From assembly GCA_026388215.1 (NCBI GenBank), contig JAPLKF010000164.1, positions 1 to 53,848 on the forward strand: 53,848 bases of DNA, in the 5' to 3' direction. The notes beneath the pieces were generated by a model that was given only the letters and a program-made list of their open reading frames with translations, made no database searches and was not told the origin of the DNA. Numbering within the stretch: the first letter of the stretch is position 1; the number at the start of each line of letters is the position of its first letter. Of the stretch, positions 16,141 to 43,704 are shown piece after piece. Position numbers and translations under genes: made by a program. The stretch comes from Pseudomonadota bacterium (lineage in GTDB: Bacteria > Desulfobacterota > Syntrophorhabdia > Syntrophorhabdales > Syntrophorhabdaceae).

Positions 16141-18036
16141 TTAGCTTCTCAAGATTCTCTTATCTCCTATCCTGATAGTCAGTTTTATTTTATCAAGATA
16201 TTCAAGAAGGGGTATCATATATTTTCTTGACAGGTCCAGTGTGGATTTGAAATCAGAAGGTGTCATCTCCTTGTTTTGCCTCAGGTAGCCCATTACCTTT
16301 TCTTTTAGATTTTCTATAACATCCCTGTGGAAATACATATCTCCTTTCACTTTTATTATTTTACCTTCGTACACAAGTCTTTCTATAATATCCCTCAGGT
16401 GGTCTTCATTTTGGTTTAATTCTTTTGATAAATCCTTTAAGGTTGGTGGAGTAAAACCGTATTCGTATAGTTTTTTGATGATATCATTTTCAAATATTTC
16501 TATGCTTCTGTCCTTTGTCCCGTTTATTTTTTTTACCCTGACCTTATCCTTTTCTACTTCCACGCTGCCCTCGTTTATGCATTCTTCCAGGGCTGTCTGG
16601 AACACAAGAGGCTCTACTTTTGGCAGTCTTGTTCGTAATTCTTCTTTTGAGATACCTATTTTCAGGGGGTTCTTTGTATGAAAATCAAAGAGCAGTTTTT
16701 GTAACATCCTTTTGTAGTCTTTAAATTTATTCATATGGATAATAGCTCTTCCAATGGGTTTTACTCTGTTAGATTGTTTTAACATCTCTAATATCCTGTT
16801 GATGGATATCCCCTCATTACCTAAAAGTATGGGCAATCTGTTTTCTTTAATGCCTTCGAACCCACCCTTTATAATGTGATATTCCGCCTTATCTTCTGGT
16901 GTCCCATCTGTGAGCAGTTTATATGTTGCATCCAGATGCTCAGCGTTTCTTTTGTGTTTTGTTGGCATAATATCGAGGATTTTCCCGCCGCCAATAGTCT
17001 GTATGGCATACGAACCCCTTAAGATATATCTGTCGCCAGGCAGGGCTACAATTGGTTCTAAAAATACAAATTGGGTGAACACTTCCTCACCTGGTTCCAC
17101 AGCATCTTTGTTGAGCAATATGAGTCTTGCCTCCTCCTGCGTTGTCGCTATATGGAATCTCAAAATGCTCCCATTTTTGATAGGCTTAAAAGGCAGTCTT
17201 AAATATTTGAAGGTTGTATCTATTCTATTTGTGAGTGCCAGTGTATCAGGTCTGCCTATGATAGTTCCCCTCTCCAGTTCTTGTTTTTCTATGCCCTGGA
17301 GGTTCAGTGCAACCCTTTGACCTGCAATGGCTTCTTCTACATCCTCATGATAGACCTGGATATTTCTTATCCGTGTCTTCTTTGACAGAGGATATATCTC
17401 AATCTCCTCACCTATCTTTATATGGCCGGAGATACATGTCCCTGTGACAATAGTGCCAAGACCTTTTAATGTAAATACCCTGTCAACCGGCAACCTGAAT
17501 ATGCCTTCCTTTGACCTTTCCTGTAATGCTATTGCCACATCCCTTATGGATTCTCTCAGAGTATCGATATTCTCACCTGTAGTTGATGAGACAGGTATTA
17601 CAGGAGCTCCTTCAAGCGCTCTCCCTTTAAGGAAATCTTTTATATCTTCCCTTACAAGTTCTATCATTTCATCTTCAACAAGGTCTTTTTTGGTAATTGC
17701 GACGATACCCCTTTTTAACCCGAGTATCTCGCATATATCGATATGTTCCTTTGTCTGAGGCATTACACCTTCGTCTGCTGCAACAACAAGAAGCACCATA
17801 TCAATACCCCATGCCCCGGCTACCATGTGCCTTACGAAGCGTTCGTGTCCTGGAACATCCACTATCCCTATAAGTAAATCATCGCCAAATTTATGATGTG
17901 CAAAGCCGAGTTCTGTGGTGATACCCCTTTCCTTTTCTTCCTTCAATCTGTCACAGTCAATGCCCGTGAGGGCTTTTATCAGGGTGGTTTTCCCATGGTC
18001 AATATGTCCGGCAGTGCCGATAACAATCTTTTTCAT
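16141..18036 (-). CDS. selB: Selenocysteine-specific translation elongation factor SelB
   Basis: GTPase motifs [10 protein letters not shown] and [10 protein letters not shown]-Tu-like domains, and a long C-terminal winged-helix extension (631 aa from ATG 18036, [11 protein letters not shown]). Confidence 0.85.
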
Positions 18037-18096
18037 TGGCAACCTAACTATACAATATTTTACCGGGATGCTCAAACAGCTTGTATTTCAAGAAAG

Positions 18097-18152
18097 GGTT
18101 CAAGGAGCCAAGGGGTCAAGGGTTCAAGTGGTCAAGGAGTCAAGGGGTCGGA
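18097..18152. repeat. Tandem octamer array, ~7 units of NGGTCAAG (minus strand CTTGACCN)
   Basis: GGTTCAAG GAGCCAAG GGGTCAAG GGTTCAAG TGGTCAAG GAGTCAAG GGGTCGGA, read directly. It lies 61-116 nt upstream of the selB start. Confidence 0.6.
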
Positions 18153-18370
18153 GTAGGGGACGTTCGTGAAATGTTGTTTGACAGATTGTGAAATATGTAG
18201 ATATATTAACACATTAGCATAAAATATAATGTTATCTGAAATAGGGAATCCTAAGTGCATAACGAGTGATGATATTGAGATTGCCAGACATTTTTATGAA
18301 GGACATTGCTGTTAATGAACCGTCTTAAGATTCAAGGCAAGTTAAGAGTACTGAAAGAGGGAGGAGCGCT

Positions 18371-19783
18371 ATGATGAAAAGAAGTGCGACAATGGTCAGG
18401 AAAATTATTCTTTCTCTCTTTTTCTTTCTTCTCGCCATAAATGGTGGGGTTTTGGCGAAAGGTATGGCGGAAGAAAGCGGCCTGGGTCCACAGTCGACAC
18501 AGGCCATCGGCGAAAAGAGCGTCCTGATGGTTGTTGTCCGGTTTCCTGATGCAACACCGATAACACCAATCGAGGTGGTAAAGAGAAGAGTTGTGGCAGG
18601 ACTCGGCTCGTATGTGGACGAGCAGTCGTATGGGCTCGCCTCTATAAAGGCCGATTTCAGGGGATATGTTATGCTTCCCGATTCACTTGCTGACTACAAG
18701 ATAAGCCCATATAATTTTCGTGTGGACAAAGCAAGAATACGCAAGCTTATTGAAGACACCATGACAGCCATCGAGAAGGAGATTGATTTTTCCGTTTACG
18801 ACCACATATTGATAATACCGGCGGTGCATACCATGCCAGGCAAGGGATACGGAATGATCTGCTACTGTGCCAATCCCGGTATGCTTTCAGGTGTTACAAA
18901 GAGATATGTTCCCCGGTATGAAACCCTGAAAACAGCAGGCGGTAAAGAGTTTAGGGGCGGGATTTTTGTAGGAACAGAGAATGCAAACCTCGGTATGTTT
19001 GCCCATGACTACTTCCATGCCCTCGGTGGAATACATGACGGCAAGCGACTCGCGCCCTGACTATACGATTATGAGCGTCAGTCTGACGCTTCTGCCGGGC
19101 TTCCCTCCTTCGAGCATCATGCAACCTATATGGGCCCCTGGGACATCATGTCACAGCACTTTGTAAGACAGGGGGAACCGCCTCCGGGTCTTTCGTCTTT
19201 CACGAAGATACGCCTCGGCTGGATTAAGGCACATCAGGTCCGAACTGCGAAACCGGGTGAGACCTCATACGCCTTCCTTTCGCCTTTATCGAAGGGAGGT
19301 GAACTCCTTGTCGTCAAGATACCGTTAGATGATGGGACGTACTATCTCGTGGAAAACAGGCAACCTATCGGATTCGATAAGATGCTTCCAGATTCGGGAA
19401 TCCTCATTCTGAAAGTTTATCCTCAGGCCGCTGAAGGGTATGGCACAGTGGAGGTTAAGAGTGCCAGCGGCTCACGCAATTTTGCCAATGCAACATACAA
19501 GCTAAAAGTGAATAACCGGAACATCTTTATTGACAAAAGGCACAACATCGCCATAATGCCCCTCTGGAAGGAGAAAGACAATCTTGGCGTGCTGATCACA
19601 AGGCCAGACTATAGCGAAGGGGCGCTCAATGCTGCACGGGCAATACAAACGCTAATGAATCAAAACGCAGCGACATCTGATAGCGAGAAGGAGGCTACGA
19701 TTCATGAGGCTATTATGGCCTTCAAGAGTAAAGACTTTGAAAAGAGCTACGCCATTGCGAAAAGGAGACTCGAAGGCCGGTAG
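18371..19783 (+). CDS. Secreted metzincin/M6-like peptidase-domain protein with in-frame UGA (candidate selenocysteine) at 19058-19060
   Basis: Track ORFs 18371..19060 and 19130..19783 share a frame, and the only intervening stop is TGA. The N-terminus is a signal peptide, followed by HDYFHALGGIH (HxxxHxxGxxH) and then ...AP-[UGA]-LYDYE...GPWDIMSQ. It could alternatively be a pseudogene. Confidence 0.5.
19073..19091 (+). promoter_or_regulatory. SECIS-like hairpin 12 nt downstream of the UGA
   Basis: GAGCGUCA-GUC-UGACGCUU: 7 Watson-Crick pairs plus a G-U, with loop G and U at +24/+25 counted from the U of UGA. Confidence 0.45.
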
Positions 19784-20124: not shown

Positions 20125-21167
20125 ATATCCATGATTTTGCTGAAAGTAAGGGGCTGTCATTAAGACGGGTAATGGACTTTACTACAGGTTCTAACCCCTT
20201 GGGTCCGTCAAATAAAGCAAAACATGCAATAAGAAAGTGCATTAAAAATCTTGACCACTACCCTGACGAAAAGACAAGGTATTTGAGAAGGTATATATGC
20301 AAGAAAGAATCCATAGGAGATGAATATATAGTTTTTGGTCATGGTTCAACCCATCTCATAGGTGCCATACTCCAGGTGGTCAAACCAAAGGTGGCATGCA
20401 TCACTTCCCCTTTTTCTTATAAAACTGAAGATATCCTCAACAGGTATGATGTAAGGATAAAACCCTTTCCCCTAAATAAAGAGAGTGGTTTTTCCCTTGA
20501 TATAGAGAAGTTTCTTCAGAGCATTGAAGGGGCTGATATTGTTATAATTTCAAATCCTCACAATATCACAGGGACAGTAATCCCTGTGGAAGATATTGAC
20601 TATCTTATAGAAGCGATGGACAGAATCAATAAAATATTTATTATCGATGAGACGTATAGAGAATTTACTAAACTTGTGTCTCCAGTGAGACATGTTGTCC
20701 GGGCCAGTAATACTCTTATTGTGAGAACATTTTCGACATTCCATGCATTAGCAGGACTACATATAGGTTATATGATAGGTTCGACCAAACTTATTCAAAA
20801 AATCAGAAACGTTCTTGGCCTCCCGCAAATAAACTCCATAGCGCCTTATGCTGCTCTGGCCTCGCTGAAAGACACAGGTTATAAAAAGAGAACCCTGAAA
20901 TTCATTGAACAGGAAAAGGGGTACATCCTAAAAAAACTATCGGATATTCAGGGATTGAAAGTATTTGATACACCGTGTAATTTTTTATTACTGGAGATAG
21001 AAAGAAAGGAAAACCCGAACTTTAAAGACTTATTTCTAAAACACAATATTTTGATTGATGAATACACAGGTGAAAGGGATGAGCACTTTATAAGACTACC
21101 AATTAAGAGGCACAAATTTAACGCCTCTTTCATAAAGACATTAAAGAAGATTATGGAGGCATTGTGA
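20121..21167 (+). CDS. Class I/II aminotransferase-fold protein (HisC/CobD-like) lacking the PLP-binding lysine
   Basis: ...ISNPHNITG..., ...IIDETY... and ...RTFSTFHALAGLHIGY... align to the HisC-type motifs NPxNPTG, DEAY and RTFSKxxxLAGLRxGY, but Thr (ACA, 20736-20738) replaces the Schiff-base Lys. Confidence 0.65.
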   Translation: MNIHDFAESKGLSLRRVMDFTTGSNPLGPSNKAKHAIRKCIKNLDHYPDEKTRYLRRYICKKESIGDEYIVFGHGSTHLIGAILQVVKPKVACITSPFSYKTEDILNRYDVRIKPFPLNKESGFSLDIEKFLQSIEGADIVIISNPHNITGTVIPVEDIDYLIEAMDRINKIFIIDETYREFTKLVSPVRHVVRASNTLIVRTFSTFHALAGLHIGYMIGSTKLIQKIRNVLGLPQINSIAPYAALASLKDTGYKKRTLKFIEQEKGYILKKLSDIQGLKVFDTPCNFLLLEIERKENPNFKDLFLKHNILIDEYTGERDEHFIRLPIKRHKFNASFIKTLKKIMEAL

Positions 21168-21178
21168 ACAGATTGAAA

Positions 21179-22720
21179 ATGAAGAAGCTCCAGCGGTTCC
21201 TGTTTTGCTTTCTGTTGTTGTTTTGTTTTTTTGTTTCAACTGTATACAGTCAAGAGCAGGAGATAAGAATTCTCCATCTTAACGATTTCCACGGTTTAGC
21301 AGCAGCCTATAAGGCCTTTGGTTCGGATGAAATGGTTGGAGGCATTTCTTACCTTGCATGGCTGGCAGACAGACTTAGAAATGAAAAACCAACCCTTTTT
21401 CTTGCAGCTGGTGACATGATTCAGGGTAATAACTGGGCAAACCTTTTTAAGGGAAAGTCAGTTATTGAGCTAATGAATGAGATGGGATTTGATACCATGG
21501 TTGTGGGTAACCACGAATTTGATTTTGGGCAGAATGTTCTTAAGGAAAGAATTTCAGAAGCAAAGTTTCCATTCCTTGGGGCGAACGTCGAGGGGTTAGA
21601 TAAGCTTAACCCTTACATAATAAAAGAACTGGAAGGAGTCAGGATAGCCATAATCGGAATTGTGACAGAGGATACACCGATATTAACACATCCTGATAAC
21701 GTAAGAGGTTTGAAGTTTTTATCTCCTGTTGAAACGGTAGAAAAATATACAAAGGAACTGAGAGACAGGGTCGATATTATTATCGTCCTTTCCCACATTG
21801 GTTTTGATGCAGACATGATGCTTGCGAATAAGGTGAAGGGCATAGATGTAATTGTTGGTGGTCATTCCCATACAAAAACAGGAAGGCATATGCTAATCGG
21901 GAAAACCATTATAGTGCAGGCATGGGAGCATGGAATGGTACTCGGGGTCCTAGATCTCAAGGTAAAGGATGGAAAGATAATAGAAGCAGATAGTCATCTT
22001 GAGGAAATAAAACCGAAGCTCCTTAAAAAGAGTGACGCTGTTTCATCTATCGTCGAGAAATATACAGGAGAAATGAATACTATTATGGGTAAGACCGTTT
22101 GCGAAACGGAAAATGAGTTTGATGGAGAAAATGTCAGGGAAAGAGAAACAAATCTTGGCAACCTCATAGCCGACATCATGAGGCAGACATCGGGGGCTGA
22201 ACTGGCGATTATCAATGGAGGTGCAATAAGAGCAAGCATCGGAAAAGGGCAAGTAAAGGTCAATGATATTTATTCTGCTTTGCCTTTCGATAATTATATA
22301 GTTGCAATGAAACTCACAGGAAAACAGATTAAAGATACGCTGGAGCATGGTGTGTCAGCACTGGAGGAAAGGGCAGGCAGATTTCCTCAGGTCTCAGGTG
22401 TTGCATTCAGTTACAGCCGATCTGCTGAAAAGGGTTCAAGGGTCAAGGATATTTTTATTGATGGCAAACCAATAGAGCCCGATAGGGATTATGTTGTAGC
22501 CACCAGTGACTTCTTAGCAGCGGGTGGTGACGGTTACAGGGCTTTTGGAGAAGCCATAAGGGTGTCGAATGATTTTTCAGTAATCGGAGGGACAATAAAA
22601 AGCAATAATCTCGTATACACTGATCCAGGAAAATGGTTGAGGGATGTAGTTGTTGAATATTTAAAAGCTAAAAATAAGATTTTATCGATTGTTGAAGGCA
22701 GAATTAAGGAAATAGATTAA
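21179..22720 (+). CDS. Secreted bifunctional metallophosphatase / 5'-nucleotidase (UshA-like)
   Basis: Signal peptide MKKLQRFLFCFLLLFCFFVSTVYS. Motifs ILHLNDFHG, GDMIQGN and GNHEFD, plus a C-terminal 5'-nucleotidase domain (...DFLAAGGDGY...). Confidence 0.8.
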   Translation: MKKLQRFLFCFLLLFCFFVSTVYSQEQEIRILHLNDFHGLAAAYKAFGSDEMVGGISYLAWLADRLRNEKPTLFLAAGDMIQGNNWANLFKGKSVIELMNEMGFDTMVVGNHEFDFGQNVLKERISEAKFPFLGANVEGLDKLNPYIIKELEGVRIAIIGIVTEDTPILTHPDNVRGLKFLSPVETVEKYTKELRDRVDIIIVLSHIGFDADMMLANKVKGIDVIVGGHSHTKTGRHMLIGKTIIVQAWEHGMVLGVLDLKVKDGKIIEADSHLEEIKPKLLKKSDAVSSIVEKYTGEMNTIMGKTVCETENEFDGENVRERETNLGNLIADIMRQTSGAELAIINGGAIRASIGKGQVKVNDIYSALPFDNYIVAMKLTGKQIKDTLEHGVSALEERAGRFPQVSGVAFSYSRSAEKGSRVKDIFIDGKPIEPDRDYVVATSDFLAAGGDGYRAFGEAIRVSNDFSVIGGTIKSNNLVYTDPGKWLRDVVVEYLKAKNKILSIVEGRIKEID

Positions 22721-25047: not shown

Positions 25048-26253
25048 TCAGGCAGCCTTCTTTTTAACCTCCTTGTAAATATAGTTACGATCCTCTGTTA
25101 ACATCTTAAATATCACTTTTATCAACTGTCTGGCAAGGCACCGCAGGGCATGGTTATGATCTTTTCCTTCAGCCCTCTTTTTTTCATAATAGGCTTTGGA
25201 TTCCTGCACATATCGTATCGTGCAGCCGGCAATTTCAATCATAGTTGCCTTACATATTTTATTTGCCTTGTATACAGCTTTTGTCTTTTTCTTTTTACCT
25301 GAGTCGTTATCAATGCAGGCTACTCCACAGTACACCGCAAGCTGGCTTTCCCTGTTGAATCTTCTGATATCCCCTATCTCTCCTGCCAGTCTGCTTGAGA
25401 GTTTTGTCCCTACTCCCATAATGCTTTTTAATTGCATCACCTCTGCACTCTTTTCTCCTGTCTCTTCCAGCTCCCTGTCTAACATCTCAATCTCTTCTTT
25501 GAGATCCAATATACGTCGACAACATGATGATATAATCGCTTTGTAAATGTCTGTCAACTCCTCGACATACTGTATATTCCGAAGCCCTTCCAAGATTGAG
25601 ATGGCTGTTTTCTTCCCTATTGTTTCTATTTTCAGTAGCGCGCCCATGGTGATCTTTTTATATCTGCTGAAATCAGGGTATTTCTTCAGAAGCTGTAACA
25701 GCTTTTTGCTGTCTGTATCTCCGTACTCCAATATGTCGGGACATACCTCAAGCAGCCTTTTCCTCAGCCGGTTCTGTATCCTGACTTTCTCATCTATCAG
25801 GCTCTGTTGATGCCTTGAGAGTATCCTGAGCTTTTCATGGACTGCCGGCGTTTTCTCCACTGTTATGAACGCCTTTTCTTCTTCAGTATCCACATGGTCT
25901 TTCAATTTCAACATCTTTGCAAGCATCTTTGCGTCTCTCCGGTCGTTGCGCCATTCTGCTCCGAATACATCACGAAACCGTCTTAATTTCAAATTGTCCA
26001 CATTGTACAGTTTAAATCCGTTCTCCATGAGTATCCGGTCAAAGGGCGCACCATACCCGTTCTTCCCTTCTATCGCAAAGATTATTTCCCCTTGATGCTG
26101 TTCCTCGATTCCCTTGAATTCCCCGATCGCTTCGCGAAATTCACTAAACCTGTGCGCTACCTTCCGATCATATAATATCTTCCCGGTATCATCCATAATT
26201 ATGACGTGATGGTTTTCGCTCCCTATGTCGATTCCTCCAGACAACCTCTTCAT
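25048..26253 (-). CDS. IS110-family (DEDD) transposase/recombinase
   Basis: N-terminal GGIDIGS...AIEG...VDN...NDRRDA (DEDD pattern) and C-terminal ...LKSIMGVGTKLSSRLAGEIGDIRRFNRESQLAVYCGVACIDNDSGKKK... (the Transposase_20 pattern). Confidence 0.85.
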   Translation of the reverse strand: MKRLSGGIDIGSENHHVIIMDDTGKILYDRKVAHRFSEFREAIGEFKGIEEQHQGEIIFAIEGKNGYGAPFDRILMENGFKLYNVDNLKLRRFRDVFGAEWRNDRRDAKMLAKMLKLKDHVDTEEEKAFITVEKTPAVHEKLRILSRHQQSLIDEKVRIQNRLRKRLLEVCPDILEYGDTDSKKLLQLLKKYPDFSRYKKITMGALLKIETIGKKTAISILEGLRNIQYVEELTDIYKAIISSCCRRILDLKEEIEMLDRELEETGEKSAEVMQLKSIMGVGTKLSSRLAGEIGDIRRFNRESQLAVYCGVACIDNDSGKKKKTKAVYKANKICKATMIEIAGCTIRYVQESKAYYEKKRAEGKDHNHALRCLARQLIKVIFKMLTEDRNYIYKEVKKKAA

Positions 26254-36002: not shown

Positions 36003-37583
36003 GTGTTAGACCAAAATGCACTCCATGTCCTTAAGAAAAGGTATTTTATCAAGGACGAAAAGGGTAATCCAATAGAAACCCCTGAAGGGTTCTTTGCGCG
36101 GGTTGCAGGTTCCATTGCCCGGGCAGAGGAGAATTACAGGGAAGGACAGCGCGAAAAGATGGGAGAAGCCTTTTATCAGATGCTCTTAAATCTTGAATTT
36201 CTTCCCAACTCACCAGCACTTATGAATGCGGGCAGGGAACTCGGACAGCTTGCTGCCTGCTTTGTTCTGCCCGTTGAGGATTCCCTTGATTCCATATTTG
36301 ATTCGGTAAAACGGACGGCCAAGATTCATCAGTCAGGCGGTGGAACAGGGTTCTCATTCTCTAAACTAAGACCAAAAGATGACATTGTGGCTTCTACCAT
36401 GGGTGTTGCAAGCGGACCTGTATCCTTCATCAGGATCTTTAACATGGCAACGGAGGTGATAAAGCAGGGTGGCACAAGAAGGGGTGCAAATATGGGTATG
36501 CTCCGGATAGACCATCCTGATATAGAAGAGTTTGTAACAGTGAAAAGAGACCCGAGGGAGCTTGTCAACTTTAACCTTTCCGTTGCGGTGAGCGATGCAT
36601 TTATGAAGGCCTATAAGTCGGATAGTGAATTCCCCCTTATAAGCCCGAGAACAGAAAAGGTTGTAAAGAAGGTACGGGCCCGTGAGCTTTTCAGGCTCAT
36701 TGCGGAATCAGCATGGGATTCAGGTGAACCAGGCGTGATATTTATTGACACGATAAATAGATTTAACCCCACACCTCATATCGGAGAGATTGAGGCAACA
36801 AACCCCTGCGGTGAACAACCACTGCTGCCGTATGAATCGTGTTGCCTTGGCTCAATTAACCTCTCAAGGATGGTAAAGGATAATGCGATTGACTGGGAAA
36901 GACTGAAGGAGCTTACCCACCTTGGGGTTAGATTCCTTGACAATGTGATTGATGTAAATAAATATCCCCTCCCGGAGATTGAAAAGATAACAAAGGGTAA
37001 CAGAAAGATAGGCCTCGGTGTGATGGGATTTGCCCACATGTTGATCAAACTGGGAATACCTTATGACTCGCAAGATGCAGAGAAAATTGGTGGCCAGGTA
37101 ATGGATTTTATTCAGAGGGAGTCAAAAATAGCTTCAAAGGCACTTGCCGATGAGAGAGGTCCTTTCCCAAATTACAGGGGAAGCATGTGGGAAAAGAACA
37201 ACCTTTTACAGCGAAACGCCACGACAACAACGATCGCACCCACAGGCACCCTGAGTATTATTGCAGGCACTTCAAGTGGTATTGAGCCCATCTATGACAT
37301 CACGTATACAAGGATCCTCTTCGGTGATATACAGGTTGAGATTACTGACCCTCTCTATGCAAAGATGAAAGGGAGGCAGGGCGAATCTGAGAAGATAGTC
37401 AAGCTTTTCAGGAAGGCGTACCAGATTTCCCCATTTGATCACTTAAAAATCCAGAGGGCCTTTCAAAACCACGTTGACAATGCAGTTTCAAAAACAATAA
37501 ACCTTCCCGAGAGCGCCACACCCGAAACAATACTCAATATTTACCTCGAGGCGCACCCTCATCAATCCTCAGTCTTTTTCTAA
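36003..37583 (+). pseudogene. nrdJ: Class II (adenosylcobalamin) ribonucleotide reductase NrdJ, 3'-truncated
   Basis: Typical N-terminus (LDQNALHVLKKRYF...), NPCGEQPL active-site block, TTTIAPTGTLS and SKTINLP. After ...IYLEA (about 37553) the expected WKxGxKGxTVYRDGSR block is missing, and the frame ends in HPHQSSVFF*. Confidence 0.55.
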
Positions 37584-39428: not shown

Positions 39429-40229
39429 ATGAAAAATTCCAGAACGTATCAAATTAAGGTGTTGGATAAGGTGCTACAAATACTGGGCCTTTTTGATGAG
39501 AAAGGGAAGGAGTTAAAGGCCTCGGAACTCCACGAGAAACTGGGTCTTAATAAATCCACAACCTTTCGCATTTTGAACACATTAGCAGAGGCTGACTATC
39601 TTGAGAGAGATCCTCGCTCCCGTAAGTATCGCTTAGGGTTCAAGCTTTATTTCTTGGGCTCATTGATCGAAGGCCCCAATGAAATTCGCAAAATAGCTCG
39701 TCCGTTCTTGGAGGATCTACTACATAAATGTGAAGAAACCGTCCACCTCACGGTCCTTCATCATGGGGAAGCCCTTTACCTGGACAAGATTGACGGAAAG
39801 AGGTCCGTCCGCGTTGTATCCCGGGTCGGCATGAGACTCCCGGCTCACTGCTCAGGGGTGGGCAAAGTATTGCTTGCCGCTCTTCCAATAGAGTCCTTAG
39901 ATAGGATTATCAAAGAAAAAGGCTTGAGTCGGTTGACAGACAATACCATTACTAACGAGAAAAGCTTAAAGGCTCAACTAGCCAGGGTTCGAAAGCAAGG
40001 TTACGCCATTGATAATGAAGAGATCGAAATCGGACTGAAGTGCATTGCGGCTCCAATAACAGATTCAAAAGGTAACATAATTGCAGCTATCAGTGTAGCA
40101 GGACCCAAAGACCGGCTCAAGGAAGAAGCGACAATAATCCCACTTGTCATGGATACAGCAGCGGGCATTTCAAGGGCCCTAAAGGAAAGAGGCTTCGAAG
40201 CGGCATTTTTGTGTTCAGAAGCCAGATAG
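39429..40229 (+). CDS. IclR-family transcriptional regulator
   Basis: N-terminal wHTH ...VLDKVLQILGLF...LKASELHEKLGLNKSTTFRILNTLAEADYLERD... and a C-terminal IclR effector domain (...GLKCIAAPI...AAISVAGP...). Confidence 0.85.
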   Translation: MKNSRTYQIKVLDKVLQILGLFDEKGKELKASELHEKLGLNKSTTFRILNTLAEADYLERDPRSRKYRLGFKLYFLGSLIEGPNEIRKIARPFLEDLLHKCEETVHLTVLHHGEALYLDKIDGKRSVRVVSRVGMRLPAHCSGVGKVLLAALPIESLDRIIKEKGLSRLTDNTITNEKSLKAQLARVRKQGYAIDNEEIEIGLKCIAAPITDSKGNIIAAISVAGPKDRLKEEATIIPLVMDTAAGISRALKERGFEAAFLCSEAR

Positions 40230-40240
40230 GAGAGTTGGAA

Positions 40241-42262
40241 ATGAAAAGAGTAACCACCAAAGCGGCGTATGACTACAGTAAGTGCACAGGATGCCACACC
40301 TGTACCTATGTGTGCCCTTTCTTCGTCGTAACTAATCCCGTTGACCGTCCGTTGGAAAAGGACCAGACTCCTCCCTGTAGCAACGAGTGCCTCGCCTTTA
40401 ATGATGTTGAAGGTTTTATCGATCTTGCCGGAGAGGGAAAATTCTTCGAAGCTTGGAAACTCATTAAACAGAATAATCCTTTCCCATCCATAACCGGTAG
40501 GGTCTGTTATGCCCATTGTGAAGCAGGCTGTAATCGGGGGGGCTTCGATGAGCCGATCGCCATCAGTACTATCGAACGTTTCCTGGGTGACATGGCGTAC
40601 CAACGTGGCTGGAAATTGCCTATTCCGGAGACGCACAAAGAGGAACGGGTCGCTATCATCGGATCAGGGCCTGCGGGCCTGTCGTGTGCCTATCACTTGT
40701 CCCTCTTGGGATACCGACCTGTGGTTTTTGATGAAAGGCAAGCCGCCGGCGGAATGCTTCGGGTGGGCATACCCGAATATCGCTTACCCATAGCGATCCT
40801 TGATCGGGAGATCCAGGACATTGAGGAAATGGGGATTGAGATTCAGCTCGGACGAAAAATGGGTAGAGACTTTTCTTTTGAGGACCTCCAAAAGAAGTAT
40901 GACGCCCTGTTTGTAGCAATTGGAAGCCCGCAAAGCAGACCCCTGAATGTTCCCGGAGAAAATCTGCCGCAAGTTCTTCACGGACTGGCGTTTCTGGAGG
41001 AAGTGAAGTGCGGAAGGGCTCCGGCAATAGGCCCGCGCGTTGCCGTGATCGGGGGCGGAAATACTGCTATTGATGCTGCCCGGTCCGCTCTGCGGCTGGG
41101 AGCAGAGGTAACCTTGATCTATCGTCGATCCCGGGAAGAAATGCCGGCGAACTCAGAGGAAGTTATAGCTGCAGAGCAGGAAGGGGTGCGGATCAACTTC
41201 TTACAGACTCCGGTTGGCTTCGCTCCCCGTAACGGCGGAGTGGTCATGAGAGGAGTGCGCATGCAGCTCGGGGAACAGGATGAGACAGGTCGAAGGCGAC
41301 CCTCCCAGGTCCCCGGTTCTGATTTTGACATGGAATTCGACCACGTCATATTAGCGATTGGCGAAGGTCCTGATGCCGCTGTTGTTCCGAAAGAAATCTC
41401 CGACAGTGATGGGAAAGTAAAGGCGGACAACCGGGGATTGACAGGCATTAAAAAGGTGTTCAGCGGCGGAGATGTGGTGACAGGTCCCGCCTTCGTTTCC
41501 AAGGCCATTGGTATGGGCAAACGTGCAGCACAATCTGTTGAGGATCACCTTCAGAAGGGTTATCCCCGGACGGACCGGAATATCAAGGTCATCCTTCTCA
41601 AAGACATGAACATCGATTATTTCGATCGACAGTCCAGGGCTCCAGTGCCTCATCTAAGCTGGTCAGATGCGCGAAAGAGTTTTACCGAGGTCAAGGGGGG
41701 ATTGTCAGAACAATTGGTGCTTACTGAGGCATCTCGATGCCTTCACTGCGCGGTTCCGCCTGTTTATGATGAAAAGCGCTGCCTGGGGTGCAGCAATTGC
41801 GAGCAGCGCTGTCCCCACCAAGCCATTACGATGGTCCGCCGAGATGAGCCATTCGTGGTGGGTGTTGACATGGCTACGGTAGATGCAGGGCGTGTGCGCG
41901 AACTTTGCAGGAAAGCGCGGTTTAATCCTGAACAAATCGTCTGTTACTGCACGGAAACACGTGCCGAGGAAATTGCCGCAGCGATCCTGAAAGGGGCCGA
42001 CAGCCCGGCGGCGATAGGGGCTATGACCGGCGCCGGTTCGGGCTGCTCTGTAGAGTGCATCCAGCCAATGCTTCGGTTTTTGGAGGCTGCCGGAATCGCT
42101 GTCATCCCTCCCAAAGGGACGCAATGGTACGGAAGAACGACGACGGCCTGGGAGATTTCCAAGAAGATAACTGAAAAGCCGTCCTACCAAAAATTCCACT
42201 TTAAAGACGATCTCAATCTCCTGAATCGAGTTGTAGAAAAAGAAGAAAGGAGGAAGCCATGA
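40241..42262 (+). CDS. GltD/SudA/PreT-family NAD(P)H-dependent FAD/FeS oxidoreductase with extra ferredoxin and BFD-like domains
   Basis: N-terminal CTGCHTCTYVCP. Two dinucleotide motifs, VAIIGSGPAGLSCAY and VAVIGGGNTAIDAAR. A C-terminal CLGCSNCEQRCP, and a CYC...CSVEC pattern (41942-42058) resembling BFD-type [2Fe-2S] domains. ATG 40241 after AGGAGAG. Confidence 0.75.
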   Translation: MKRVTTKAAYDYSKCTGCHTCTYVCPFFVVTNPVDRPLEKDQTPPCSNECLAFNDVEGFIDLAGEGKFFEAWKLIKQNNPFPSITGRVCYAHCEAGCNRGGFDEPIAISTIERFLGDMAYQRGWKLPIPETHKEERVAIIGSGPAGLSCAYHLSLLGYRPVVFDERQAAGGMLRVGIPEYRLPIAILDREIQDIEEMGIEIQLGRKMGRDFSFEDLQKKYDALFVAIGSPQSRPLNVPGENLPQVLHGLAFLEEVKCGRAPAIGPRVAVIGGGNTAIDAARSALRLGAEVTLIYRRSREEMPANSEEVIAAEQEGVRINFLQTPVGFAPRNGGVVMRGVRMQLGEQDETGRRRPSQVPGSDFDMEFDHVILAIGEGPDAAVVPKEISDSDGKVKADNRGLTGIKKVFSGGDVVTGPAFVSKAIGMGKRAAQSVEDHLQKGYPRTDRNIKVILLKDMNIDYFDRQSRAPVPHLSWSDARKSFTEVKGGLSEQLVLTEASRCLHCAVPPVYDEKRCLGCSNCEQRCPHQAITMVRRDEPFVVGVDMATVDAGRVRELCRKARFNPEQIVCYCTETRAEEIAAAILKGADSPAAIGAMTGAGSGCSVECIQPMLRFLEAAGIAVIPPKGTQWYGRTTTAWEISKKITEKPSYQKFHFKDDLNLLNRVVEKEERRKP

Positions 42263-43704
42263 GAAGTGGACCTATTCAGCCCGCCGGGCTCAGGAAATCT
42301 CAATACGGTGTGGATCCGGCCCTTGTCAAGAAACGGGGCGCAGAACTGCCAGGGGTGGTCTCTGTGCTCATAACCGATCTCTTTCCCGACCTTCCACAAA
42401 CCATTTATCCAGGAAAGGAAGGAGTTTCTGCTATACGCCAAGAAACTGAATCGGCACTGGCCAAGGTGGACTTGAGCCGCATAAAACGCGGGCAGACTGT
42501 GAATGTTCTTGCATCGCATCATGGGTTCACCATCCTTGGTGGGGAGCCGTATGCAGAAATGATCCGGACCATCAAAGACGTCGTCGCAAGCCGCACCGGT
42601 GCACAGGTTCGGCTGAGAGCCGGTGTTGGATTGCGGTTTCGCGAGACTGAGGAATATATTAGATCCTTTGGCCTCGACACGCACTTTCAAGGTCAAGCCA
42701 TAGGCATGGCCCCTATCGACCGCGGAGTTGCCATTGAGACCGAAATCGGGACTCTTTATGGACTAAACAAGGCCTATGATGCTGACTGGATTATACATGC
42801 TCATAATAGCGATGTCCGGGAGATTCATTTCCATCGTCAGGTGGATAGAGCCATAAAACCTTTTGCAATGTCCTATGCGAGAATTGAGACTCGCTCCACT
42901 TACCACCAAAACCTTGGGCCGCGGGGAGCGAACTTTGTGGCCCGGGCTATTTTCAATTCGGAATTTGTACAAAAGAAATTCGCCTTCGCGTGCTTCCTAA
43001 TCATGGCTCCGCACGGGGTTGTCAAGGTGGATGCAGATAATGATCTAGATGCTCTCGACCAAAGGGTGAACGTAGCAGGATTTAAGTACTATGGGAAAGT
43101 TCTCAATCTCTTTGGCGAGATTGATGCCTGCATTGCGGTGCTAGATTTTTCATGTCCCGTTTGCTATGTGTTTGCTGGAGGGGTAATTTACGCAAACTTC
43201 CTGGGAGCGAATCGTGATCTCTTTGATCTAGAAGAGACTCCCCTTCCCTCTTACACGTGGTATACCGAGGCCTTCTACAATCGAAAAGGCAGGCCTATGC
43301 TTTCAGAGATTCCCCCGGTGAATCCGGCAATAAAAATGGTGGTTCAAAATCACGCCTGGGGCGGATACCCCAGCAAATTTTTTGCCGAACATGTTCCAAC
43401 GATAGTTGTAGGCCGAGAGCAGGGCGATCTTTTCAACATGGATTCTCAAAACCTCAGGTACATGGAGCATGCTGTTACTGCGGATTCGCTAGAAAGCGCC
43501 ATGGATTTTGCTTACCGAGTTACAGGGACGGACCAGGTGATCATCTTTGACGGCGCTGCGGGCGGCTTCAACCTCAGCGCCTCACTTGCCAAGCGGCTTG
43601 AGAAAGCCGCTCCCGAGGTTAGCAGGCGAGTAGAGAAAGAGCTTCTGCCCAAATGGATAAGGCAGAGGGGAATCGATTCTGAGGTCCTTAGCATGCTGCC
43701 CTGA
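42259..43704 (+). CDS. Uncharacterised 481-aa protein (no family recognised)
   Basis: Long ORF with operon-like codon usage and an ATGA overlap with the reductase stop. Not LarA-like by motif comparison (no DxTR / GxHR blocks). Soluble, with no Cys clusters. Confidence 0.6.
   Translation: MRSGPIQPAGLRKSQYGVDPALVKKRGAELPGVVSVLITDLFPDLPQTIYPGKEGVSAIRQETESALAKVDLSRIKRGQTVNVLASHHGFTILGGEPYAEMIRTIKDVVASRTGAQVRLRAGVGLRFRETEEYIRSFGLDTHFQGQAIGMAPIDRGVAIETEIGTLYGLNKAYDADWIIHAHNSDVREIHFHRQVDRAIKPFAMSYARIETRSTYHQNLGPRGANFVARAIFNSEFVQKKFAFACFLIMAPHGVVKVDADNDLDALDQRVNVAGFKYYGKVLNLFGEIDACIAVLDFSCPVCYVFAGGVIYANFLGANRDLFDLEETPLPSYTWYTEAFYNRKGRPMLSEIPPVNPAIKMVVQNHAWGGYPSKFFAEHVPTIVVGREQGDLFNMDSQNLRYMEHAVTADSLESAMDFAYRVTGTDQVIIFDGAAGGFNLSASLAKRLEKAAPEVSRRVEKELLPKWIRQRGIDSEVLSMLP

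Follow-up and report, generated by a model that had tools for sequence, protein, structure and literature searches.

A probable new selenoprotein family with an M6-like metzincin fold, read from an in-frame UGA beside selB

Analysis of a 53,848-nucleotide contig (JAPLKF010000164.1 of assembly GCA_026388215.1, hereafter the window) from a Pseudomonadota bacterium, placed by GTDB in the Syntrophorhabdaceae of the Desulfobacterota, revealed a gene at 18371-19783 that is interrupted by an in-frame UGA and very probably represents a selenoprotein family not yet catalogued, whose fold is that of a metalloprotease. In the explanation favoured here, the UGA at 19058-19060 would be recoded to selenocysteine (Sec) during translation: the elongation factor SelB would deliver Sec-tRNA(Sec) and bind, through its C-terminal winged-helix domains, an mRNA hairpin at 19073-19091 whose GU-containing apical loop lies 20 nt past the UGA. 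The predicted product is an exported protein of 470 residues with the fold of the M6 (immune inhibitor A / thuringilysin) metzincins, in which the HExxH helix is altered to HDxxH and followed by an 8-residue beta-hairpin insertion, Sec230 at the place of the third ligand, an invariant Tyr two residues further on and the Met-turn. Our working model is a secreted metallohydrolase whose metal would be held by His212, His216 and Sec230. To this explanation as a whole (one gene, UGA as Sec, M6-fold exported protein and His-His-Sec metal model) we assign a probability of about 0.88, and the comparative sequence evidence makes Sec recoding of the UGA, taken by itself, highly probable. Comparison of sequences shows the single gene, the pairing of Sec with Cys, a conserved SECIS, an accompanying selB, the fold and the homology in position between Sec and the third ligand; insertion of selenium, its binding of a metal and hydrolase activity are inferred. 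Nothing sets the recoding apart from the usual bacterial mechanism, and the novelty lies in the family and in where its Sec is placed.

The in-frame UGA and its hairpin

Two open reading frames (ORFs), 18371..19060 (229 aa) and 19130..19783 (217 aa), lie in the same frame, and the sole stop between them is the TGA at 19058-19060. As a sequence-only reading of this DNA, made earlier without database searches, had pointed out, read-through of this TGA joins them into one protein of 470 codons (229 + 1 + 240 residues), with Sec as residue 230. A GGAGG Shine-Dalgarno sequence was seen by inspection upstream of 18371, and the N-terminus, MMKRSATMVRKIILSLFFFLLAINGGVLA followed by KG, resembles by eye a Sec-type (general secretory) signal peptide. 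In databases the two halves are separate entries, both named "hypothetical protein" (cluster look-ups). No further credible pair of ORFs split by TGA was found in the window. The gene and its features are the following.

18371..19783, + strand: candidate selenoprotein gene, complete, in a single frame with Sec230, encoding a predicted secreted M6-like (thuringilysin-like) metzincin-fold protein
18371..18460, + strand: predicted Sec-type signal peptide, residues 1-30, ending ...GGVLA before KG, judged by eye from the translation
18860..18868, + strand: invariant C-Y-C motif (Cys164, Cys166) inside the GYGMICYCANPGM loop, in 56/56 family members (C163/C165 of the homologue P0003)
19004..19018, + strand: HDYFH, zincin helix motif with the putative metal ligands His212 and His216, and Asp213 in place of the catalytic Glu, from alignments
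19058..19060, + strand: in-frame UGA, Sec230, homologous by alignment to the Asp third zinc ligand of HExxHxxGxxD
19073..19091, + strand: candidate bacterial SECIS hairpin with an 8-bp stem and a GUC loop, fitting the bSECIS consensus and backed by comparative evidence
19130..19153, + strand: MGPWDIMS, Met-turn region of the metzincin fold (Met260), from alignment to VGPWxLMS of canonical relatives and EAWSLMS of InhA2

A search with the fused protein returned 375 matches, and the top 120 were nearly all full-length (~460-480 aa), with identities of 85% or less. In a MAFFT alignment the column opposite the UGA is Cys in all 119 full-length homologues that cover it, which is the residue that the sequence-only reading had named as favouring Sec, and the surrounding motif reads ...HD[YF]FHALGG....KRL[AV]P-C-LYD[YF]ERQSDAS....YMGPWDIMS. 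The protein database holds mostly Cys forms because gene callers split the Sec forms; in a search of 1.84 billion representative proteins many matches end at profile position 226 (...RLVP) or begin at position 250 (MGPWD...). Scans at the DNA level of species-representative genomes and metagenomes found the motif in 120 loci, which gave 100 distinct segments of 210 nt. In these segments the homologous codon is TGA in 75, TGC in 15 and TGT in 10, and 27 of the 34 species-representative genomes that contain the motif have TGA. Carriers are metagenome-assembled genomes (MAGs) labelled Syntrophaceae, Smithella, Syntrophorhabdaceae, Desulfobacteraceae, Desulfocapsaceae, Thermodesulfobacteriota and similar, and their proteins are 53-97% identical to that of the window; on this sampling the family is widespread in Desulfobacterota-type anaerobes. 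An assembly error, which the sequence-only reading had wished to see excluded, does not account for the TGA: the identical 229-aa N-terminal fragment ends at the same TGA on contigs of three independent projects (Logan, JGI and ENA) whose DNA differs from that of the window at 1-3 positions.

Close relatives switch repeatedly between the Sec and the Cys form. Fitch parsimony on a neighbour-joining tree of 78 complete genes, drawn without support values, places Sec at the root with 13 state changes, and Sec appears to be the ancestral as well as the majority state in the sampled clade, with repeated replacement by Cys. Four loci (L006, L049, L053 and L095) have TGT or TGC at the Sec codon together with the same hairpin as in TGA loci; they have the appearance of very recent Sec-to-Cys conversions and might serve to date the decay of the hairpin.

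Homologues do not terminate at the UGA, an outcome that the sequence-only reading had counted against Sec: the frame stays open for 229-255 codons past the TGA in 60/60 TGA loci with both flanks complete. Among TGA loci the ratio of nonsynonymous to synonymous substitution rates (dN/dS, pairwise Nei-Gojobori) has a median of 0.15 upstream of the TGA and 0.17 downstream, values that point to purifying selection on both halves. The first codons after the UGA encode Leu in 75/75, Tyr in 75/75 and Asp in 73/75 loci, followed at +4 by Phe or Tyr, with all synonymous alternatives in use; the stretch directly 3' of the UGA is evidently read as protein, because the amino acids are kept while the synonymous codons vary. 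The same holds for all 23 codons between the UGA and the Met at 19130, where synonymous variation is free outside the hairpin. This Met is also kept in the unsplit Cys and Asp relatives (Y[MV]GxW) and is Val in one TGA locus, and by this comparison the ATG at 19130 encodes an internal structural Met and is no start codon.

The hairpin consists of two stem strands (19073-19080, GAGCGUCA; 19084-19091, UGACGCUU) that form 8 pairs, one of them G-U, around a GUC loop (19081-19083). As previously described from the sequence, it begins 12 nt past the UGA, with the loop 20 nt past it and the loop G at +24 (U of UGA = +1). The model of the bacterial selenocysteine insertion sequence (bSECIS) specifies a loop of 3-9 nt, an upper stem of 4-16 bp, a G within the first two positions of the loop, usually with G or U after it (G[G/U]), a UGA-to-loop distance of 16-37 nt and a minimum free energy (MFE) of -7.5 kcal/mol or less (PMC13188914). 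The window hairpin agrees with every term, having a 3-nt GUC loop, 8 bp, the 20-nt spacing and an MFE of -10.0 kcal/mol, and, as in canonical elements, its predicted reader is a SelB with C-terminal winged-helix domains. Like the SECIS of the E. coli fdhF type and the bSECISearch consensus, it is a stem-loop in the coding region directly 3' of the UGA with a small loop starting G-U. Its sequence, in contrast, is unrelated to the Rfam SECIS models, its loop measures 3 nt, or 5 nt (AGUCU) with the closing A-U pair open, and it lies within the codons of the conserved peptide ERQSDA, with which it co-evolves.

Conservation of this hairpin, which had been suggested as a check, was found in every TGA locus. 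The core CGUCAG(U/G)CUGACG is invariant in 75/75, and the loop is GUC in 73/75 and GGC, which the consensus G[G/U] allows, in 2/75. Synonymous sites within the hairpin are frozen where the codon is TGA: Arg +6 is CGT in 75/75 TGA loci vs 14/22 Cys loci (Fisher p = 2e-6), Ser +8 is TCT in 73/73 vs 12/25 (p = 1e-9) and Asp +9 is GAC in 75/75 vs 18/25 (p = 3e-5), p-values which overstate independence since the loci are phylogenetically related; Gln +7 is CAG in 75/75 vs 24/25. In the same TGA loci codons +1 to +4, those from +11 onward and those upstream vary freely, and an Arg four codons 5' of the UGA uses six codons. The hairpin is also more stable by prediction in TGA loci (median MFE -9.5 kcal/mol) than in Cys loci (-3.7 kcal/mol; p = 2e-10). 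Compensatory changes occur as well: pair 18-32 of alignment A2 is G-C in 64, U-A in 3 and A-U in 2 sequences and unpaired in none, its changes coming with replacements in the peptide (E to N with A to E; A to V), while pair 17-33 goes from A-U to U-A in 2 sequences and is unpaired in 16. RNAalifold independently predicts a 6-bp core. Taken across genomes, these observations lift the feature far above chance and indicate that the RNA structure is kept by selection beyond the needs of protein coding and that it decays in Cys loci.

Several points weigh against Sec recoding. Only two stem pairs supply the covariation, five of the eight being invariant, and the relatedness of the loci bears on all the codon comparisons. 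Folded as a single 60-nt sequence, the hairpin has z = -0.10 against dinucleotide shuffles, so that the case rests on the comparison across genomes because the hairpin alone is statistically unremarkable. Rfam gave no hit at gathering thresholds over the window and no SECIS at E <= 10 on 18950-19250, a missing match that is uninformative because bacterial SECIS elements are diverse. Neither selA nor selD was found among the scanned ORFs of the window, nor any tRNA gene, including tRNA-Sec, and within the window the Sec trait is attested by selB alone.

Other accounts of the UGA have to be set against this evidence. A Cys codon (TGY) mutated or mis-sequenced to TGA, leaving a broken gene, would agree with the single base that separates TGA from TGC and TGT, with TGT beside an otherwise identical hairpin in the close relatives L006, L049 and L053, and with the two separate hypothetical proteins of the databases. 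The same TGA in 75 distinct segments from many lineages and in assemblies of three projects, the frame that stays open downstream in 60/60 complete loci at a dN/dS of 0.17 and the conserved hairpin that tracks the TGA state leave this account a negligible probability. If translation instead stopped at the UGA and a second polypeptide began at ATG 19130, 69 nt after the stop, the two chains would have to assemble into one domain; gene callers do predict two ORFs. Such a split gene is very improbable: the 23 codons from the UGA to that ATG keep their amino acids and include the core LYD motif of the active site, inspection found no Shine-Dalgarno sequence before 19130 and a consensus scan no promoter-like site within 19060-19130, and the Met is internal in unsplit relatives. 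SECIS-independent read-through by a near-cognate tRNA (Trp, Cys or Arg) could be favoured by the base after the UGA, which is C in 75/75 loci, UGA-C being a weak termination context. Reassignment of UGA is argued against by its use as an ordinary stop in 15 of the window's 34 long ORFs, among them full-length family matches. Homologues specifically have Cys at this column, a bSECIS-type hairpin is kept only where the codon is TGA and selB is present, all of which makes read-through or reassignment very improbable. Recoding of the UGA to Sec is the account that we carry forward.

Fold and putative metal site

The suggestion that the gene encodes an M6/InhA-type peptidase domain was borne out by structure. 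With profiles, PF05547 (Pfam M6) matched at a sub-threshold 12.2 bits vs a cutoff of 22, and TIGR03296 (NCBIfam M6 domain) matched in one stretch, residues 53-346, across the UGA (E 2.8e-20, 73.4 bits vs a cutoff of 110.8). An AlphaFold2 model was obtained for P0003, a Cys homologue 83% identical to the window's protein, from a 56-sequence alignment (mean predicted local distance difference test score, pLDDT, 85.5; predicted template modelling score, pTM, 0.87). Its residues 1-34 are of low confidence, as expected for a signal peptide. The best Foldseek matches of this model in the PDB are the B. anthracis InhA2 zymogen structures 4yu6/4yu5 (E 7e-13, probability 1.0, TMq 0.53), followed by the other metzincins Amuc_1438, adamalysins/ADAMs and fragilysin. 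The modelled chain comprises a catalytic domain with the active-site helix at 206-218 and a beta-hairpin at 220-225 formed by the inserted residues, then a beta-sandwich domain (~298-416) and a C-terminal three-helix segment. The M6/metzincin fold is confirmed by this predicted model. A narrow family profile found no match among PDB sequences; the link to InhA2 needed the structure search and a broader profile.

A profile search of the 1.84 billion representatives recovered 5446 relatives at E <= 0.001, and these place the UGA within the putative metal site. Canonical relatives read ...AHEFGHxLGLPDLYDY...VGPWxLMS, in line with the pattern HExxHxLGLPDLYD...GxWxLMS that the sequence-only reading had associated with M6/InhA-type domains. 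Intermediate relatives keep HExxH and have the 8-residue insertion (HE..H.LGG........PDLYD), and a sister group reads HDLAHALGG........[VP]DLYD. Opposite the HDYFH of the selenoprotein, canonical relatives have HEFGH and the InhA2 crystal construct has HAFGH; at the Sec column canonical relatives have the D of LGLPDLYD. Against InhA2 the broad profile aligns HElgHaLGlpdLYD to HAFGHDLGLPDEYD and GpWdlMS to EAWSLMS; it also matches snapalysin (HETGHVLGLPDHY), and in both proteins the D of LGLPD falls opposite the profile's Asp for the Sec position. The third-ligand motif is HEXXHXXGXXD (PMC3890501), and the assignment of its Asp as the third ligand rests on PMC12237041 and PMC3890501. By these alignments Sec230 is positionally homologous to the third metal ligand, a point that goes beyond the earlier reading, as does the replacement of the catalytic Glu by Asp. 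Owing to the 8-residue insertion, Sec/Cys stands 14 residues past the second His.

In a broad alignment of 45 sequences the Sec/Cys column (residue 230) holds Asp in 36, Cys in 7, His in 1 and Gln in 1. At +2 from this column a Tyr is invariant (45/45) and is of the kind that can serve as a "tyrosine switch" past the third ligand (PMC12237041). No fewer than 42/45 sequences retain each of the two His, the Gly turn and the Met of the Met-turn; as general base 34 have Glu and 11 have Asp, Asp being invariant in the Sec/Cys family. Compared with M6 InhA2, the selenoprotein is likewise predicted to be secreted, and its helix motif, LGLPDxYD and GxWxLMS Met-turn are in register (broad profile, E 2.4e-27). 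It differs by HDxxH in place of HExxH, by Sec/Cys in its family in place of the Asp third ligand, by the 8 residues inserted after the Gly turn and before the ligand and the extra GYGMICYCANPGM loop, and by its much shorter length (470 vs ~750-800 aa), different C-terminal region and scores below the curated M6 cutoffs. The GYGMICYCANPGM loop is specific to the HDxxH subfamily. Coupling of its invariant CxC motif to the Sec/Cys ligand was considered and was not clear-cut: in relatives CxC is not strictly coupled to Cys at 230.

Metal ligation by Sec is supported because all other elements of the metal site are retained and because nearly every residue seen at column 230 is able to bind metal (D, H, C, U); on these alignments we lean, by a modest measure, towards Sec230 as a metal ligand. 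Two points tell against the hydrolase model. A Glu-to-Asp change at the catalytic position usually cripples zincin peptidases, and the selenoprotein may be no peptidase or may bind its metal non-canonically; no neighbour cluster occurs in more than 6 of ~95 loci, so that the neighbourhood is not conserved and offers no functional hints. The chemistry may differ from that of a standard zinc peptidase because of the invariant Glu-to-Asp change and the subfamily-specific GYGMICYCANPGM loop.

The main functional rival is a redox or nucleophilic role of Sec. The zinc site would then have been lost in the HDxxH subfamily and Sec/Cys230 would be redox-active or nucleophilic instead of a ligand, possibly as a selenylsulfide with the invariant CxC cysteines or as a Sec/Cys-His-Asp triad on the old zincin scaffold. 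It draws on the Asp that replaces the catalytic Glu in all members, on the invariant C164 and C166 in a subfamily-specific loop and on the use of Sec in redox catalysis by most known selenoproteins (PMC13188914). The retention of both His, the Gly turn, the Tyr at +2 and the Met-turn is hard to explain without a metal site, the sister HDxxH proteins have at this position Asp or His, which are metal ligands and not redox residues, and the CxC cysteines are, as noted, not strictly coupled to Cys230. We regard a Sec that does not bind metal as a serious yet rather unlikely alternative to the His-His-Sec site.

selB and the surroundings of the gene

The features that precede the gene are as follows.

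16141..18075, - strand: selB, selenocysteine-specific elongation factor (TIGR00475, E 2e-111, 373.5 bits vs a cutoff of 242)
18178..18207, + strand: promoter-like site TTGACA-18-TATATT, 11/12 matches, upstream of the selenoprotein gene, from a consensus scan only, a match that is in itself no sign of function

The predicted SelB is complete, with GTP_EFTU, SelB beta-barrel and winged-helix 2 and 3 domains. Its likely start is the ATG at 18036 (gene callers, 631 aa), which leaves a gap of ~334 bp to the divergent selenoprotein gene. The neighbourhood claimed from the sequence alone is thus correct for this window, and it does not extend to the family: tblastn with the window SelB found selB near the gene only on contigs of the same strain and in locus L034, ~3.8 kb away. 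A tandem array of ~7 units of 8 nt (18094-18149; consensus AAGGGGTC, 77% matches) occupies the intergenic region between selB and the selenoprotein gene, just 5' of the promoter-like site.

Across loci the larger clusters of neighbours are either the selenoprotein gene itself or antisense ORFs overlapping it, and the gene appears to be a stand-alone unit. These antisense ORFs, of up to ~500 aa, occur in some 60 loci (for example L014:6871-8379, minus strand) and are probably a by-product of codon composition and not genes.

The rest of the window is typical of the metabolism of a syntroph or sulfate reducer, with genes for a TRAP transporter, glutaryl-CoA dehydrogenase, thiolase, indolepyruvate:ferredoxin oxidoreductase, NrdJ and a GltD-like oxidoreductase. 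Two genes downstream of the selenoprotein gene, 21164-22720 (+) encodes a UshA-like 5'-nucleotidase/phosphodiesterase with a signal peptide; it matches NF041198, 'UshA-like (seleno)protein', below threshold (125 bits vs a cutoff of 275), has no in-frame TGA and is presumably a non-Sec relative of this known selenoprotein family. A mobile element lies ~5 kb from the locus, at 25048-26253 (-), in the form of an IS110-family (RNA-guided) transposase (NF033542, E 9e-55). The ORF at 36003-37583 (+) encodes a B12-dependent ribonucleotide reductase of 526 aa that covers ~12-480 of a 759-position model, and it may be truncated, split or a short form. The GltD-like NAD(P)-binding Fe-S oxidoreductase is encoded at 40211-43704 (+), with partial matches to NF045663 'diclust_near_Sec' and to the YgfK selenate-reductase-subunit model; the 481-aa ORF that follows it has no NCBIfam match at E <= 1e-10.

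Relation to known selenoproteins and metal sites

The sequence-only reading knew of no selenoprotein family of this peptidase type, and the catalogues agree. The 87 families of prokaryotic selenoproteins listed in 2022 (PMC9312934) include none that is M6- or zincin-like, and the same is true of the 119 families and subfamilies catalogued in 2026 (PMC13188914). A single peptidase-like family stands in the 2022 prokaryotic list, a trypsin-like serine protease from the GOS metagenome (PMC9312934, Table 1), which has another fold and catalytic class, is unrelated to M6 and is gone from the 2026 table of 119 families. Proteases are unmentioned in the deep-Sep and BSepDB papers, the family table of BSepDB lying outside this comparison. 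No paper joining "M6 family" and "selenocysteine" was found in a literature search, and those joining "metzincin" and "selenocysteine" were off-topic. NCBIfam release 20 has no dedicated model for the family.

Peptide deformylase, which binds its metal by the two His of an HExxH helix and a Cys thiolate, is a precedent for a hydrolytic His2-Cys site. It differs from the selenoprotein in fold and family, its Cys comes from a separate EGCLS motif and its Glu is retained; we know of no Sec forms of it. Sec as a first-shell ligand of a catalytic metal is described for FdhA and the [NiFeSe] hydrogenases (PMC13188914). If our model is right, Sec230 would resemble the Sec of formate dehydrogenase (Mo/W) and of [NiFeSe] hydrogenase (Ni) in being a first-shell metal ligand and not a free redox residue. 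Those proteins are cytoplasmic redox enzymes, or redox enzymes exported by the twin-arginine (Tat) pathway, with complex cofactors, whereas the present protein would be a zincin fold exported by the general secretory pathway, with a mononuclear His2-X site that is presumably hydrolytic. The boldest form of the proposal, a first Sec-ligated zincin in a widespread exported Desulfobacterota family with a His-His-Sec metal, Asp for Glu, Sec as the ancestral state and ~12 losses to Cys, seems to us evenly balanced between right and wrong.

For annotation, the finding means that the gene is split into two "hypothetical proteins" here and that the same error occurs in dozens of MAGs of Syntrophales, Desulfobacterales and related groups. 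The selenoprotein catalogue would gain a family with a hydrolytic rather than a redox fold, which is unusual. The third ligand of metzincins becomes a natural experiment with Asp, His, Cys and Sec homologues, coupled to a Glu-to-Asp change of the general base. Because Sec and Cys forms alternate so often among close relatives, the family is also a clean system for asking what selenium gives over sulfur in a metal-binding, extracytoplasmic setting. If the metal model is true, selenium would sit in the first coordination shell of a metal centre that is hydrolytic and not redox-active, which might reflect how extracellular metalloenzymes have adapted to habitats that are sulfidic and limited in metals.

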